Assembly (NCBI RefSeq): GCF_003334765.1 | Contig: NZ_QOWT01000006.1 | Reading direction: 5' to 3' (one strand) | Length of the DNA: 64,000 bases | Source: Escherichia coli | GTDB lineage: Bacteria > Pseudomonadota > Gammaproteobacteria > Enterobacterales > Enterobacteriaceae | In this document: positions 40,786-48,050 of the stretch, one piece after another | How the letters are laid out: each line of letters begins with the position of its first letter | Numbering within the stretch: the stretch's first letter is position 1 | Notes under the pieces: model-generated | What the model saw: only the letters and a program-made list of their open reading frames with translations | What the model was told of the DNA's origin: nothing | Databases searched by the model: none | Made by a program: the position numbers and the translations under genes

Positions 40786-42831
40786 ATGCAGCAGTTAGCC
40801 AGTTTCTTATCCGGTACCTGGCAGTCTGGCCGGGGCCGTAGCCGTTTGATTCACCACGCTATTAGCGGCGAGGCGTTATGGGAAGTGACCAGTGAAGGTC
40901 TTGATATGGCGGCTGCCCGCCAGTTTGCCATTGAAAAAGGTGCCCCCGCCCTTCGCGCTATGACCTTTATCGAACGTGCGGCGATGCTTAAAGCGGTCGC
41001 TAAACATCTGCTGAGTGAAAAAGAGCGTTTCTATGCTCTTTCTGCGCAAACAGGCGCAACGCGGGCAGACAGTTGGGTTGATATTGAAGGTGGCATTGGG
41101 ACGTTATTTACTTACGCCAGCCTCGGTAGCCGGGAGCTGCCTGACGATACGCTGTGGCCGGAAGATGAATTGATCCCCTTATCGAAAGAAGGTGGATTTG
41201 CCGCGCGCCATTTACTGACCTCAAAGTCAGGCGTGGCAGTGCATATTAACGCCTTTAACTTCCCCTGCTGGGGAATGCTGGAAAAGCTGGCACCAACGTG
41301 GCTGGGCGGAATGCCAGCCATCATCAAACCAGCTACCGCGACGGCCCAACTGACTCAGGCGATGGTGAAATCAATTGTCGATAGTGGTCTTGTTCCCGAA
41401 GGCGCAATTAGTCTGATCTGCGGTAGTGCTGGCGACTTGTTGGATCATCTGGACAGCCAGGATGTGGTGACTTTCACGGGGTCAGCGGCGACCGGACAGA
41501 TGCTGCGAGTTCAGCCAAATATCGTCGCCAAATCTATCCCCTTCACTATGGAAGCTGATTCCCTGAACTGCTGCGTACTGGGCGAAGATGTCACCCCGGA
41601 TCAACCGGAGTTTGCGCTGTTTATTCGTGAAGTTGTGCGTGAGATGACCACAAAAGCCGGGCAAAAATGTACGGCAATCCGGCGGATTATTGTGCCGCAG
41701 GCATTGGTTAATGCTGTCAGTGATGCTCTGGTTGCGCGATTACAGAAAGTCGTGGTCGGTGATCCTGCTCAGGAAGGCGTGAAAATGGGCGCACTGGTAA
41801 ATGCTGAGCAGCGTGCCGATGTGCAGGAAAAAGTGAACATATTGCTGGCTGCAGGATGCGAGATTCGCCTCGGTGGTCAGGCGGATTTATCTGCTGCGGG
41901 TGCCTTCTTCCCGCCAACCTTATTGTACTGTCCGCAGCCGGATGAAACACCGGCGGTACATGCAACAGAAGCCTTTGGCCCTGTCGCAACGCTGATGCCA
42001 GCACAAAACCAGCGACATGCTCTGCAACTGGCTTGTGCAGGCGGCGGTAGCCTTGCGGGAACGCTGGTGACGGCTGATCCGCAAATTGCGCGTCAGTTTA
42101 TTGCCGACGCGGCACGTACGCATGGGCGAATTCAGATCCTCAATGAAGAGTCGGCAAAAGAATCCACCGGGCATGGCTCCCCACTGCCACAACTGGTACA
42201 TGGTGGGCCTGGTCGCGCAGGAGGCGGTGAAGAATTAGGCGGTTTACGAGCGGTGAAACATTACATGCAGCGAACCGCTGTTCAGGGTAGTCCGACGATG
42301 CTTGCCGCTATCAGTAAACAGTGGGTGCGCGGTGCGAAAGTCGAAGAAGATCGTATTCATCCGTTCCGCAAATATTTTGAGGAGCTACAACCAGGCGACA
42401 GCCTGTTGACTCCCCGCCGCACAATGACAGAGGCCGATATTGTTAACTTTGCTTGCCTCAGCGGCGATCATTTCTATGCACATATGGATAAGATTGCTGC
42501 TGCCGAATCTATTTTCGGTGAGCGGGTGGTGCATGGGTATTTTGTGCTTTCTGCGGCTGCGGGTCTGTTTGTCGATGCCGGTGTCGGTCCGGTCATTGCT
42601 AACTACGGGCTGGAAAGCTTGCGTTTTATCGAACCCGTAAAGCCAGGCGATACCATCCAGGTGCGTCTCACCTGTAAGCGCAAGACGCTGAAAAAACAGC
42701 GTAGCGCAGAAGAAAAACCAACAGGTGTGGTGGAATGGGCTGTAGAGGTATTCAATCAGCATCAAACCCCGGTGGCGCTGTATTCAATTCTGACGCTGGT
42801 GGCCAGGCAGCACGGTGATTTTGTCGATTAA
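40786..42831 (+). CDS. paaZ: PaaZ, bifunctional oxepin-CoA hydrolase / 3-oxo-5,6-dehydrosuberyl-CoA semialdehyde dehydrogenase (ALDH N-domain plus MaoC-like hydratase C-domain; 681 aa)
   Basis: ORF 40786..42831 (+), 681 aa, [29 protein letters not shown]…. Confidence 0.96.
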
Positions 42832-42841
42832 TCGGTGAATG

Positions 42842-42875
42842 AAGGGCAACGGCGAATAGTTGCCCTTTTATTTCA
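42842..42875 (+). terminator. Rho-independent terminator of paaZ
   Basis: aagggcaac-ggcgaatag-ttgccctt followed by ttatttc, 10 nt after the paaZ stop. Confidence 0.6.
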
Positions 42876-42948
42876 CTAAGTTTTGTGACGTTGTCACATT
42901 ATGCATGATGTGTACATCTATTTTCAGGGCATCCACTGTATGAAAAGC

Positions 42949-42974
42949 TGGCACACCTGCCAAACAACCTGGCA
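42949..42974 (+). promoter_or_regulatory. Putative FeaR operator upstream of tynA
   Basis: TGGCA-N8-AAA-N5-TGGCA (tggcacacctgccaaacaacctggca) about 105 nt upstream of the tynA ATG; same architecture as the feaB-proximal site at 46981-47006. Confidence 0.5.
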
Positions 42975-43078
42975 GGTGCAGGCAATCCCCTTTGCATCAG
43001 TACTGATAATGTGAACCTGACTAAACCGCCCACAGAGCGCGGTTGCTAACAAGAACACAACATCTGACGAGGTTAATA

Positions 43079-45352
43079 ATGGGAAGCCCCTCTCTGTATT
43101 CTGCCCGTAAAACAACCCTGGCGTTGGCAGTCGCCTTAAGTTTCGCCTGGCAAGCGCCGGTATTTGCCCACGGTGGTGAAGCGCATATGGTGCCAATGGA
43201 TAAAACGCTTAAAGAATTTGGTGCCGATGTGCAGTGGGACGACTACGCCCAGCTCTTTACCCTGATTAAAGATGGCGCGTACGTGAAAGTGAAGCCTGGT
43301 GCGCAAACAGCAATTGTTAATGGTCAGCCTCTGGCACTGCAAGTACCGGTAGTGATGAAAGACAATAAAGCCTGGGTTTCTGACACCTTTATTAACGATG
43401 TTTTCCAGTCCGGGCTGGATCAAACCTTTCAGGTAGAAAAGCGCCCTCACCCACTTAATGCGCTAACTGCGGACGAAATTAAACAGGCCGTTGAAATTGT
43501 TAAAGCTTCCGCGGACTTCAAACCCAATACCCGTTTTACTGAGATCTCCCTGCTACCGCCAGATAAAGAAGCTGTCTGGGCGTTTGCGCTGGAAAACAAA
43601 CCGGTTGACCAGCCGCGCAAAGCCGACGTCATTATGCTCGACGGCAAACATATCATCGAAGCGGTGGTGGATCTGCAAAACAACAAACTGCTCTCCTGGC
43701 AACCCATTAAAGACGCCCACGGTATGGTGTTGCTGGATGATTTCGCCAGTGTGCAGAACATTATTAACAACAGTGAAGAATTTGCCGCTGCCGTGAAGAA
43801 ACGCGGTATTACTGATGCGAAAAAAGTGATTACCACGCCGCTGACCGTAGGTTATTTCGATGGTAAAGATGGCCTGAAACAAGATGCCCGGTTGCTCAAA
43901 GTCATCAGCTATCTTGATGTCGGTGATGGCAACTACTGGGCACATCCCATCGAAAACCTGGTGGCGGTCGTTGATTTAGAACAGAAAAAAATCGTTAAGA
44001 TTGAAGAAGGTCCGGTAGTTCCGGTGCCAATGACCGCACGCCCATTTGATGGCCGTGACCGCGTTGCTCCGGCAGTTAAGCCTATGCAAATCATTGAGCC
44101 TGAAGGTAAAAATTACACCATTACTGGCGATATGATTCACTGGCGGAACTGGGATTTTCACCTCAGCATGAACTCTCGCGTCGGGCCGATGATCTCCACC
44201 GTGACTTATAACGACAATGGCACCAAACGCAAAGTCATGTACGAAGGTTCTCTCGGCGGCATGATTGTGCCTTACGGTGATCCTGATATTGGCTGGTACT
44301 TTAAAGCGTATCTGGACTCTGGTGACTACGGTATGGGCACGCTAACCTCACCAATTGCTCGTGGTAAAGATGCCCCGTCTAACGCAGTGCTCCTTAATGA
44401 AACCATCGCCGACTACACTGGCGTGCCGATGGAGATCCCTCGCGCTATCGCGGTATTTGAACGTTATGCCGGGCCGGAGTATAAGCATCAGGAAATGGGC
44501 CAGCCCAACGTCAGTACCGAACGCCGGGAGTTAGTGGTGCGCTGGATCAGTACAGTGGGTAACTATGACTACATTTTTGACTGGATCTTCCATGAAAACG
44601 GCACTATTGGCATCGATGCCGGTGCTACGGGCATCGAAGCGGTGAAAGGTGTTAAAGCGAAAACCATGCACGATGAGACGGCGAAAGATGACACGCGCTA
44701 CGGCACGCTTATCGATCACAATATCGTGGGTACTACACACCAACATATTTATAATTTCCGCCTCGATCTGGATGTAGATGGCGAGAATAACAGCCTGGTG
44801 GCGATGGACCCAGTGGTAAAACCGAATACTGCCGGTGGCCCACGCACCAGTACCATGCAAGTTAATCAGTACAACATCGGCAATGAACAGGATGCCGCAC
44901 AGAAATTTGATCCGGGCACGATTCGTCTGTTGAGTAACCCGAACAAAGAGAACCGCATGGGCAATCCGGTTTCCTATCAAATTATTCCTTATGCAGGTGG
45001 TACTCACCCGGTAGCAAAAGGTGCCCAGTTCGCGCCGGACGAGTGGATCTATCATCGTTTAAGCTTTATGGACAAGCAGCTCTGGGTAACGCGTTATCAT
45101 CCTGGCGAGCGTTTCCCGGAAGGCAAATATCCGAACCGTTCTACTCATGACACCGGTCTTGGACAATACAGTAAGGATAACGAGTCGCTGGACAACACCG
45201 ACGCCGTTGTCTGGATGACCACCGGCACCACACATGTGGCCCGCGCCGAAGAGTGGCCGATTATGCCGACCGAATGGGTACATACTCTGCTGAAACCATG
45301 GAACTTCTTTGACGAAACGCCAACGCTAGGGGCGCTGAAGAAAGATAAGTGA
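43079..45352 (+). CDS. tynA: Periplasmic copper/topaquinone primary amine oxidase (757 aa)
   Basis: ORF 43043..45352 (+) with ATG at 43079 giving MGSPSLYSARKTTLALAVALSFAWQAPVFA|HGGEAH…; signal peptide; TPQ precursor motif context …NYDY…. Confidence 0.95.
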   Translation: MGSPSLYSARKTTLALAVALSFAWQAPVFAHGGEAHMVPMDKTLKEFGADVQWDDYAQLFTLIKDGAYVKVKPGAQTAIVNGQPLALQVPVVMKDNKAWVSDTFINDVFQSGLDQTFQVEKRPHPLNALTADEIKQAVEIVKASADFKPNTRFTEISLLPPDKEAVWAFALENKPVDQPRKADVIMLDGKHIIEAVVDLQNNKLLSWQPIKDAHGMVLLDDFASVQNIINNSEEFAAAVKKRGITDAKKVITTPLTVGYFDGKDGLKQDARLLKVISYLDVGDGNYWAHPIENLVAVVDLEQKKIVKIEEGPVVPVPMTARPFDGRDRVAPAVKPMQIIEPEGKNYTITGDMIHWRNWDFHLSMNSRVGPMISTVTYNDNGTKRKVMYEGSLGGMIVPYGDPDIGWYFKAYLDSGDYGMGTLTSPIARGKDAPSNAVLLNETIADYTGVPMEIPRAIAVFERYAGPEYKHQEMGQPNVSTERRELVVRWISTVGNYDYIFDWIFHENGTIGIDAGATGIEAVKGVKAKTMHDETAKDDTRYGTLIDHNIVGTTHQHIYNFRLDLDVDGENNSLVAMDPVVKPNTAGGPRTSTMQVNQYNIGNEQDAAQKFDPGTIRLLSNPNKENRMGNPVSYQIIPYAGGTHPVAKGAQFAPDEWIYHRLSFMDKQLWVTRYHPGERFPEGKYPNRSTHDTGLGQYSKDNESLDNTDAVVWMTTGTTHVARAEEWPIMPTEWVHTLLKPWNFFDETPTLGALKKDK

Positions 45353-45363
45353 TTGTTTCAGAC

Positions 45364-45392
45364 AAAAAAACGGCACCAGGTGCCGTTTTTTA
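45364..45392. terminator. Bidirectional rho-independent terminator between convergent tynA and feaB
   Basis: aaaaaaa-cggcacc-ag-gtgccg-tttttt: perfect stem flanked by A- and T-runs. Confidence 0.7.
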
Positions 45393-45409
45393 CTTATGAG
45401 CGAACCAGA

Positions 45410-46909
45410 TTAATACCGTACACACACCGACTTAGTTTCACACCAACCGTCCAGCCAGTCGGGGCCAAAATCACGGCCCGTTCCTGACTGCTTCATCCCA
45501 CCAAACGGTAAGTTAGCGTCAATTAAGGTATGGCTGTTTACCCACACCGTCCCTGCCTGTAAGCGATCGCTATATTCCAGAGCCTGGGAGAGATTTTGCG
45601 TCCAGACACTGGCAGTTAAGCCATATTCCGTGTCGTTTGCCAGTTGTAACGCCTCTTCTCCATCCGCTACTCGCACCAGGTTTACCACCGGACCAAACAC
45701 CTCTTCACGAGTTAAGCGCAATTTAGCATCGGGATTTACCACCAGCGTTGGCGCAACATAATACCCCTCTCCGGCTGGTCCATTCGACCCGCGAATCAGC
45801 TCTGCTTGCTGTGCCTGCGCATCGTCGAGGAATGAACACACTTTGTCGCAGTGCGCACGAGAAACCAAAGGGTTAATCTGTGCAACAGGTGACATCCCCG
45901 GTCCCACTTGCAACGATTTTACCGCCTGCTCAAATCCACTAACCAGCGTGTCAAACAACGGCGCTTCAATATAAATTCGCGAACTGGCGGCGCATACTTG
46001 CCCTTGATTCAGGAAGCTTCCGGTCATCAAGCCTTCAATAACCCATTGCGGATCAGCATCTTTTAATACAATTGCCGGGTTTTTACCGCCCAGTTCCAGC
46101 GTTACACGCGTTAAGTGATCAGCAGCAGTTCTGGCAATACCTTTTCCCGTCGCGGTTGAACCGGTAAAACTGATTTTCGCAACATGAGGATGTGACGTCA
46201 GGGCCGCGCCGCATACAGCACCTGACCCGGTGACGACATTAAAAACGCCATCAGGGATACCAGCCTCGCTGGCCAGTTCCGCCACGCGCAACATCGTCAG
46301 TGGCGTGGTTTCCGAAGGCTTAATCACGATTGAACAGCCTGCTGCCAGTGCTGGCATCACCTTCCACATACCAATCATCAACGGAAAGTTCCATGGCACA
46401 ATTCCCGCCACTACGCCAACCGGCTCTTTACGCGTCCAGGCCTGATAACGCGCCCCCTGGGGTAAGGGAATCGACAAGTCCAGCGTTTTACCCGCGATTT
46501 TGGTCGTTAACCCGGCGGTATAACGCATCCAGTTCAGCGTACAGCCCACTTCAAAAGCACGGGAAATGGCAATTGACTTGCCTTGCTCCAGGGTTTCCAG
46601 TTGCGCCAGCTCCTCACTGTGCTGCTCCACCAGATCAGCAAAACGTAGCAGAATACGTTCACGCTCTGCGGGTAATCGCCCGGCCCAGCGACGCGAGACA
46701 AAGGCCCGCCAGGCAGACATGACTGCGTTATCTACATCCGCTTCGTTGGCATCAGCAGTAGACGCAATTTCTTGCCCGGTGGCCGGATCAAAGATCGCCA
46801 ACCGTTTTTCACTTTGTGCGGGGCCAGGACGACCATCAATATAAAGACCGTGTTGACGATCGAGAAACTGTTGGACCTGGCTTAATACTGCTACATGCGG
46901 CTCTGTCAT
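45410..46909 (-). CDS. feaB: Phenylacetaldehyde dehydrogenase (499 aa)
   Basis: ORF 45410..46912 (-); ATG at 46907-46909 gives [29 protein letters not shown]…; ALDH family. Confidence 0.95.
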
Positions 46910-46980
46910 CACTTTTCCTTATTATTTACCCAGTGTGATTTCAGTGTACGCAGCGACAAGAAAAGTCACTTTTTTCGCTG

Positions 46981-47006
46981 TGACATTCGCTTTGTCAGCT
47001 GTGACA
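46981..47006 (-). promoter_or_regulatory. Putative FeaR operator upstream of feaB
   Basis: Read on the minus strand: TGTCA-N8-AAA-N5-TGTCA (tgtcacagctgacaaagcgaatgtca), about 75-100 nt upstream of the feaB start, in the feaB/feaR divergent region. Confidence 0.5.
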
Positions 47007-47144
47007 AGCTCCGCAAATCGTGACAATAACCGCTTATGTCTCTATGCCTGACAAGACTTATTTCCTATAGTCAGGCTCATTAGCTTCGTTTATTGCAACA
47101 CAAATGCAACAATAAAAATACATTTCACAGAGCGAAAACGTGCC

Positions 47145-48050
47145 ATGAACCCCGCAGTGGATAATGAGTTTCAGCAATGGCTTTCCCAAATCAATCAGGT
47201 ATGCGGAAATTTTACCGGACGCCTGCTGACTGAGCGTTACACGGGTGTACTGGACACGCATTTTGCCAAAGGACTAAAGCTGAGTACCGTGACAACCAGC
47301 GGGGTGAATTTATCCCGCACCTGGCAGGAAGTAAAAGGCAGCGACGATGCCTGGTTTTACACCGTTTTTCAGCTTAGTGGTCAGGCAATAATGGAGCAGG
47401 ATGAGCGTCAGGTGCAGATTGGCGCTGGCGATATTACGTTACTCGATGCCTCACGCCCCTGTTCGCTTTACTGGCAGGAGTCTTCTAAACAGATTTCATT
47501 ACTTTTGCCACGCACTCTGCTGGAACAATATTTTCCCCATCAAAAACCTGTCTGCGCAGAAAGACTGGACGCTGACTTACCCATGGTGCAACTCAGTCAT
47601 CGCCTGTTACAGGAGAGCATGAATAATCCGGCACTTTCTGAAACAGAAAGTGAAGCTGCGCTACAGGCGATGGTGTGTCTGCTGCGCCCGGTACTTCATC
47701 AGCGGGAATCTGTTCAACCTCGTCGTGAACGTCAGTTTCAAAAAGTGGTTACGTTGATAGACGATAATATTCGCGAAGAGATATTACGCCCGGAGTGGAT
47801 AGCCGGAGAGACAGGTATGTCAGTACGTAGTTTGTACCGAATGTTTGCCGATAAAGGTTTGGTAGTCGCGCAATATATTCGTAACCGTCGTCTCGATTTT
47901 TGTGCAGATGCGATTCGCCATGCCGCAGATGATGAAAAACTGGCAGGCATCGGCTTTCATTGGGGATTTTCTGACCAGAGTCATTTTTCAACGGTATTTA
48001 AGCAACGCTTTGGGATGACGCCAGGCGAGTATCGACGTAAATTCCGCTAA
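47145..48050 (+). CDS. feaR: AraC-family activator of tynA and feaB (301 aa)
   Basis: ORF 47145..48050 (+), 301 aa, MNPAVDNEFQQWLSQINQVCGNFTGRL…; C-terminal AraC HTH (…GFHWGFSDQSHFSTVFKQRFGMTPGEYR…). Confidence 0.95.
   Translation: MNPAVDNEFQQWLSQINQVCGNFTGRLLTERYTGVLDTHFAKGLKLSTVTTSGVNLSRTWQEVKGSDDAWFYTVFQLSGQAIMEQDERQVQIGAGDITLLDASRPCSLYWQESSKQISLLLPRTLLEQYFPHQKPVCAERLDADLPMVQLSHRLLQESMNNPALSETESEAALQAMVCLLRPVLHQRESVQPRRERQFQKVVTLIDDNIREEILRPEWIAGETGMSVRSLYRMFADKGLVVAQYIRNRRLDFCADAIRHAADDEKLAGIGFHWGFSDQSHFSTVFKQRFGMTPGEYRRKFR

Follow-up and report, generated by a model that had tools for sequence, protein, structure and literature searches.

The question raised by the tynA-feaB locus of Escherichia coli is how a single regulator can couple the oxidation of amines by TynA to the detoxification and oxidation of aldehydes by FeaB, a coupling through which phenylethylamine, tyramine, and dopamine become nutrients for enteric bacteria. 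We analyzed a 64-kb stretch of E. coli K-12-type DNA (referred to here as the window) that carries paaZ, tynA, feaB, and feaR and in which tynA and feaB are preceded by repeats that match each other. As judged from sequence comparisons, these repeats are very probably the operators through which FeaR, a product-sensing activator of the AraC family, acts on both genes and couples the two steps. The element would then explain how one aldehyde-sensing activator links amine oxidation to the removal of the aldehyde.

Two direct repeat units upstream of tynA and feaB

A preliminary description of this DNA had quoted one string upstream of each gene, and both were found where it had placed them: TGGCACACCTGCCAAACAACCTGGCA at 42949-42974 on the plus strand and TGTCACAGCTGACAAAGCGAATGTCA, which is the reverse complement of 46981-47006, with identical spacing in the two strings. 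The pattern derived from them, TGKCA-N8-AAA-N5-TGKCA, has two matches in the window when both strands are searched, compared to 0.03 expected from dinucleotide-preserving shuffles, and none of 100 shuffles reached two matches. Both matches are thus real, but the pattern stops at the pentamer of a second unit and falls 11 bp short of the operator end at both genes; when each string is extended by 11 bases towards its gene, a second TGNCA-N8-AAA unit is completed. The K (G or T) in the pentamer fits the E. coli sites but is too narrow, with TGACA present in 7 of the 71 distinct feaB proximal units described below.

In each promoter, TGNCA-N8-AAA occurs twice in direct orientation, with 21 bp from the start of one copy to the start of the next. 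The feaB operator (46970-47006, minus strand), TGTCAcagctgacAAA-gcgaa-TGTCAcagcgaaaAAA, is a perfect two-unit match, and the tynA operator (42949-42985, plus strand), TGGCAcacctgccAAA-caacc-TGGCAggtgcaggCAA, has one mismatch (CAA for the second AAA). The distance from the start of the operator to the ATG is 130 bp for tynA and 97 bp for feaB. The predicted FeaR units and the genes concerned are as follows.

42949-42964, plus strand: predicted distal FeaR unit of tynA, TGGCAcacctgccAAA, at approximately −70 to −55 relative to the predicted start
42970-42985, plus strand: predicted proximal FeaR unit of tynA, TGGCAggtgcaggCAA, at approximately −49 to −34, with the degenerate A-tract CAA
46991-47006, minus strand: predicted distal FeaR unit of feaB, TGTCAcagctgacAAA (pattern match)
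46970-46985, minus strand: predicted proximal FeaR unit of feaB, TGTCAcagcgaaaAAA (perfect pattern match)
43079-45352, plus strand: tynA, periplasmic copper/topaquinone primary-amine oxidase, first target gene (open reading frame [ORF] map, RefSeq annotation, NCBIfam)
45410-46909, minus strand: feaB, phenylacetaldehyde dehydrogenase, second target gene (ORF map, RefSeq annotation)
47145-48050, plus strand: feaR, AraC-family activator (ORF map, NCBIfam, Pfam)

The ORF map also bears out that feaR (plus strand) is divergent from feaB (minus strand), as had been described.

Conservation of the element with feaR

Twelve FeaR orthologues were aligned, and 80 FeaR-encoding loci were taken from contigs of one genome per species, covering Escherichia, Pseudocitrobacter, Citrobacter, Enterobacter, Klebsiella, Raoultella, Kluyvera, Leclercia, Lelliottia, Trabulsiella, Buttiauxella, Cedecea, Hafnia, Serratia, and Pseudomonas. 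Per-promoter counts refer to distinct orthologous promoters (36 for tynA and 71 for feaB). Nearly all of the enteric loci have feaB and feaR in divergent orientation, and about half have tynA <10 kb away. The exact pattern of the preliminary description precedes tynA in 38 of 40 loci and feaB in 56 of 74; in the other feaB promoters, one base of the first A-tract is changed, giving CAA or ACA, and in the other two tynA loci, both from Hafnia, the site is located further upstream, beyond the 260-bp stretch that was scanned. Over the 1.57 Mb of these loci, 91 to 111 pattern matches were obtained versus 0 to 1 in shuffled controls. All 111 matches to either the relaxed two-unit pattern or the exact pattern are located upstream of feaR-linked amine oxidase or aldehyde dehydrogenase genes, including the Hafnia tynA promoters and the gene for a Leclercia oxidase of 44% identity. 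A mismatch-tolerant scan also detected the element in Serratia and in 6/6 Pseudomonas loci, where FeaR is only 47 to 50%, or at most 53%, identical. Altogether, the element accompanies feaR in 80/80 loci examined, and the scan of these loci revealed no further regulon members at distances of up to 10 kb from feaR.

The conservation is concentrated in the repeats themselves: motif positions carry 1.92 to 1.99 bits per position, the spacers within the site 1.17 to 1.30 bits, and the downstream promoter spacer 0.48 to 0.62 bits, and no variation of the 21-bp period was seen across orthologous promoters. In the distal unit of tynA, the pentamer is TGGCA in 35/36 and the A-tract AAA in 36/36 distinct promoters, and in the proximal unit, the pentamer is TGGCA in 36/36 and the A-tract CAA in 35/36; most genera other than Escherichia have CAAAC here, that is, AAA shifted to one base later. 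The distal unit of feaB has TGTCA in all 71 promoters, followed by AAA (54 promoters), CAA (10 promoters), or ACA (7 promoters), and the proximal unit has TGTCA (61 promoters), TGACA (7 promoters), or TGGCA (3 promoters), with AAA in 70/71. The central base of the pentamer is promoter specific and conserved across genera (1.6 to 1.9 bits): all tynA units but one have G, whereas every distal feaB unit and most of the proximal ones have T.

Two arrangements outside the usual gene order were observed. In the six Pseudomonas loci (L073, L074, L076, L077, L078, and L080), the two-unit motif is located just downstream of the feaR homologue and has the form TGGCA-N8-CAA-N5-TGGCA-N8-AAA (AAC in L073, L074, and L076). 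In L078 (10978-11543), the one Pseudomonas locus of which the arrangement was examined, the motif precedes an ORF of 133 amino acids (aa) with a signal peptide and a CSVCH heme-binding motif, apparently a c-type cytochrome, followed by an aldehyde dehydrogenase of 50 to 53% identity, which suggests a different amine-oxidizing partner in this organism. In Leclercia adecarboxylata (L006, 4720-4756), a tynA-type operator is located before the amine oxidase gene whose product is only 44% identical to TynA; here the operator appears to have been retained even though the oxidase gene is highly divergent or has been replaced.

Promoter geometry

The position of the repeats was related to candidate −10 elements, which are predicted from their conserved offset.

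43004-43012, plus strand: candidate extended −10 of tynA, TGaTAATGT
43005-43010, plus strand: alternative −10 hexamer of tynA, GATAAT, overlapping TGaTAATGT
46943-46948, minus strand: candidate −10 of feaB, TACACT (TAGACT in most genera)

The feaB hexamer is located exactly 58 bp from the start of the distal pentamer in 70/71 distinct promoters, carries 1.72 bits per position, and also forms a conserved block in the alignment of the intergenic region. For tynA, the best −10-like hexamer is located 58 to 59 bp from the distal pentamer in 33/36 promoters, and a TG is present at −15/−14 in 33/36. If a spacer of 17 bp is assumed, the proximal unit would end approximately 2 bp inside the −35 region, with the distal unit at approximately −70 to −55 and the proximal unit at approximately −49 to −34; transcription is predicted to start at approximately 43019 for tynA and approximately 46936 (minus strand) for feaB. 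No consensus −35 hexamer was found at either promoter in a sigma-70 scan, and the absence of a good −35 is what would be expected if the promoters are activator dependent.

The predicted tynA leader contains a 6-bp hairpin, AACCGC...GCGGTT (43024-43044, plus strand), and CCGC...GCGG-like sequences are present in the tynA leaders of Pseudocitrobacter, Citrobacter, Silvania, and Klebsiella/Raoultella and absent from that of Enterobacter. The hairpin was rejected as a structured element, since the whole leader folds no better than shuffled sequences (z = 0.2).

FeaR and the proposed mechanism of activation

FeaR belongs to the AraC/XylS family, having an AraC-type double helix-turn-helix (HTH) of ∼100 aa at the C terminus (Pfam HTH_18, residues 219 to 299, 2.4e-19; HTH_AraC, residues 259 to 298, 9.4e-12) and a ligand-binding/dimerization domain at the N terminus (AraC_binding_2, residues 12 to 185, 5e-29). 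It matches the NCBIfam equivalog NF007243 with 505 bits (cutoff 199), and its DNA-binding domain is detectably homologous to those of RamA, SoxS, Rob, and MarA. TynA matches the equivalog NF011285 (primary-amine oxidase) with 1,634 bits (cutoff 1,278). FeaB falls into the aldehyde dehydrogenase family by its NCBIfam profile matches and reaches no NCBIfam model at its cutoff, the top one being the StyD phenylacetaldehyde dehydrogenase with 613 bits versus a cutoff of 850; its name therefore rests on the RefSeq annotation.

In the complexes of MarA, Rob, SoxS, and RamA solved with DNA or polymerase, one domain with two HTHs reads two successive major grooves. The anatomy of the repeats fits an AraC-family dimer because they are direct repeats with a 21-bp period and because each unit is bipartite, with parts about one helical turn apart. 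The FeaR operator would thus consist of two direct, bipartite 16-bp units that are 21 bp (two helical turns) apart and lie on the same face of the DNA. Each unit would be occupied by one FeaR monomer, with one HTH on TGNCA and the other on the A-tract one turn away, and a FeaR dimer would cover both units. The assignment of one monomer to each unit is suggested by the analogous solved domains of MarA, Rob, SoxS, and RamA, and it fits the distance between the TGNCA pentamer and the A-tract (∼12 bp from center to center). Bound at the −35 region of a weak promoter, FeaR would recruit or activate RNA polymerase directly; such a contact is plausible because the proximal unit is predicted to end ∼2 bp inside the −35 region and the −10 is conserved. 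The aromatic aldehyde produced by TynA is reported to activate FeaR, and therefore one signal would switch on both the amine oxidase gene tynA and the aldehyde dehydrogenase gene feaB.

According to published work, tynA and feaB are activated by FeaR, a member of the AraC family, and aromatic aldehydes made by TynA activate FeaR to bind the tynA promoter (PtynA), with phenylacetaldehyde given as the effector; the FeaR-PtynA pair also serves as a biosensor for neuroactive amines. Those who engineer PtynA sensors could draw on the constant period of 21 bp, the fixed spacing of 58 bp to the −10, the central base that differs between the two promoters, and the occurrence of the element as far as Pseudomonas. 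Together with this literature, the co-occurrence with feaR, the AraC-type anatomy, and the −10 geometry support the proposal, already made in the preliminary description, that these are FeaR sites that coregulate tynA and feaB.

The FeaR operator is already known, and no new biology is claimed for it. By genetic, biochemical, and computational approaches, Zeng and Spiro reportedly identified the FeaR site as a TGNCA-N8-AAA motif, of which the tynA and feaB promoters have two copies each, and reportedly found the coactivator to be the product of the TynA reaction. The same work is reported to have shown that FeaR binds the site and that activation requires it. We take the elements at 42949-42985 and 46970-47006 to be this site; when two TGNCA-N8-AAA copies per promoter are looked for, feaB is a perfect match and tynA has one mismatch. 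The finding is of value as a positive control, in that a real operator can be recovered from raw sequence. What the comparison adds is the extent of the conservation, which reaches Pseudomonas, the constancy of the 21-bp period, and the −10 at a fixed distance of 58 bp; the 2013 paper may cover part of this. The existence and topic of that paper (Zeng & Spiro, J Bacteriol 2013, 195:5141) are confirmed through later papers citing it, and no paper among those searched in full text quotes the motif string.

Several points weigh against the assignment to FeaR. One paper that cites the FeaR work names tyramine, not an aldehyde, as the ligand, which we take to be a loose paraphrase. In addition, a generic sigma-70 scan returned no forward-strand promoter at the tynA or the feaB site, and the −35/−10 assignment is therefore drawn from conservation only; at the E. 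coli tynA promoter, there are two overlapping −10 candidates 2 bp apart.

Alternative explanations for the repeats

It is highly unlikely that another regulator, such as CRP, NAC, NsrR, or PaaX, binds the repeats instead of FeaR. Regulators other than FeaR have been connected with this region: NsrR reportedly acts at tynA and feaB, as Rankin is said to have described in 2008, and Zeng and Spiro are said to have proposed CRP and NAC at feaR in 2013. Moreover, the distal feaB pentamer is part of CTGTGACA, which is followed by a conserved CCGCAAA and resembles a CRP site of the form TGTGA-N6-CCGCA. However, the tynA copy lacks the TGTGA and CCGCAAA context, and the element repeats directly with a period of 21 bp, whereas CRP, NsrR, and PaaX dimers read palindromes. 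The same element is present at two promoters known to depend on FeaR, and its co-occurrence with feaR in 80/80 loci includes those of Pseudomonas, in which the neighboring genes are different.

If FeaR is the protein that binds, its recognition unit could be a pair of pentamers, TGNCA-N4-TGNCA, and not TGNCA-N8-AAA, but there is very little probability of this. Both E. coli distal units do contain an extra pentamer within the N8 spacer (TGGCA-cacc-TGCCA and TGTCA-cagc-TGACA), and this middle pentamer conforms to TGNCA in 32 of the 35 distinct distal units of tynA. It is TGNCA in just 21 of 71 feaB distal units, however, and in none of 106 proximal units, and the part that is conserved is the CA(A)A tract; the pentamer pair was therefore rejected as a general feature.

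That the tynA and feaB repeats resemble each other by chance or through promoter composition, without function, can practically be dismissed: the original pattern specifies just 13 positions, two of them 2-fold degenerate, and a third two-unit match, with one mismatch, exists in the window, but none of the 100 shuffles had two matches, the loci contained 111 matches compared to 0 to 1 after shuffling, and the motif positions are nearly invariant over >20 genera while adjacent bases vary. The third match (23745-23781, minus strand) is located inside an ORF of 1,922 aa (23268-29036, minus strand); it is of the kind expected by chance and was not retained as an operator.

Comparison with other AraC-family activators

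At the I1-I2 sites of araBAD, an AraC dimer occupies two direct-repeat half-sites of ∼17 bp that are ∼21 bp apart from center to center, with the proximal one overlapping the −35 region, and RhaS, MelR, and XylS exert class II activation like AraC at I1-I2. The FeaR operator would have the same geometry, as judged by the conserved −10 offset and the predicted numbering. In contrast, the half-sites of AraC, TAGC-N7-TCCATA, have no relation in sequence to those of FeaR, nothing resembling the distant looping operator araO2 was seen at the FeaR promoters, and the ligand domain of FeaR is AraC_binding_2, whereas that of AraC is an arabinose-binding cupin.

The FeaR units also resemble the marbox of MarA, SoxS, Rob, and RamA, in that both are bipartite units suited to a single domain with two HTHs and both combine a GCA-containing element with an A-rich element (YYAAA) about one helical turn apart. 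However, the Mar-family proteins are monomers on a single, orientation-dependent box, whereas the FeaR sites are two direct repeats; the spacing of the subelements differs by ∼1 bp, and the feaB pentamer TGTCA does not contain GCAC. The resemblance is one of mode of action and not of membership.

Other elements upstream of feaB, feaR, and tynA

The block CCGCAAA (47011-47017), located just upstream of the distal feaB unit, is conserved in ∼69 enteric intergenic regions. Exactly 8 bp away is TGACA (47002-47006), which is the distal feaB pentamer read as its reverse complement, and the two form an inverted TGNCA-N8-AAA unit that points towards feaR. Alternatively, 47000-47015 (plus strand) can be read as TGTGA-N6-CCGCA, a CRP-like site; the tynA promoter has no counterpart of this CCGCAAA/TGTGA arrangement. 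One could imagine that the operators encode more than whether FeaR is bound, in that the inverted third unit gives FeaR autoregulation or competition with CRP and the promoter-specific central base of the pentamer sets different FeaR affinities and underlies differential induction of tynA and feaB, but we consider this joint proposal speculative and rather improbable.

Further towards feaR, the conserved block ACTTATTTCCTATAGT (47055-47071, plus strand) contains TATAGT, a candidate −10 for feaR, and a conserved direct repeat, TGCAAC-N5-TGCAAC (47094-47111, plus strand), is located between this candidate −10 and the start codon. These conserved blocks may be sites for regulators of feaR, for which CRP, NAC, or NsrR have been proposed.

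Upstream of tynA, an inverted repeat, TGTGAC-GTT-GTCACA (42884-42898, plus strand), is one base short of the spacing of a CRP site. Together with an ATGCAT palindrome (42901-42906), it precedes the distal tynA unit by 40 to 65 bp. The sequence from −25 to −1 upstream of that unit shows no conservation outside Escherichia.

Sequence variation and neighboring features

Over positions 42700-47300, the sequence shows 100% identity to that of E. coli K-12 MG1655, in which paaZ, tynA, feaB, and feaR are annotated, and the same stretch was found in 3,297 of 5,426 complete E. coli genomes. The common E. coli polymorphism is a G-to-A exchange at 42994, between the −35 and −10 regions of tynA; in a separate genome comparison made for such variants, 867 genomes fell into the band of 95 to 99% identity. 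A rare natural variant in E. coli 2017.17.03CC (L082) has TGGTA for TGGCA in the proximal tynA pentamer (42970-42974 in the window), a position that is invariant in all other promoters examined, and activation of tynA by FeaR may be weakened in this strain.

The gene on the other side of the tynA promoter is paaZ.

40786-42831, plus strand: paaZ (ORF map)

A terminator-like hairpin followed by a T-run, gggcaacggcgaatagttgccctttt (42844-42870, plus strand), is located 3′ of the paaZ stop codon and sets this gene apart from the tynA promoter. Finally, tynA and feaB converge at their 3′ ends, and in some E. coli strains an IS4 element is inserted between them (2953-4299 in L081, corresponding to 45352-45410 in the window); this insertion leaves both promoters intact.

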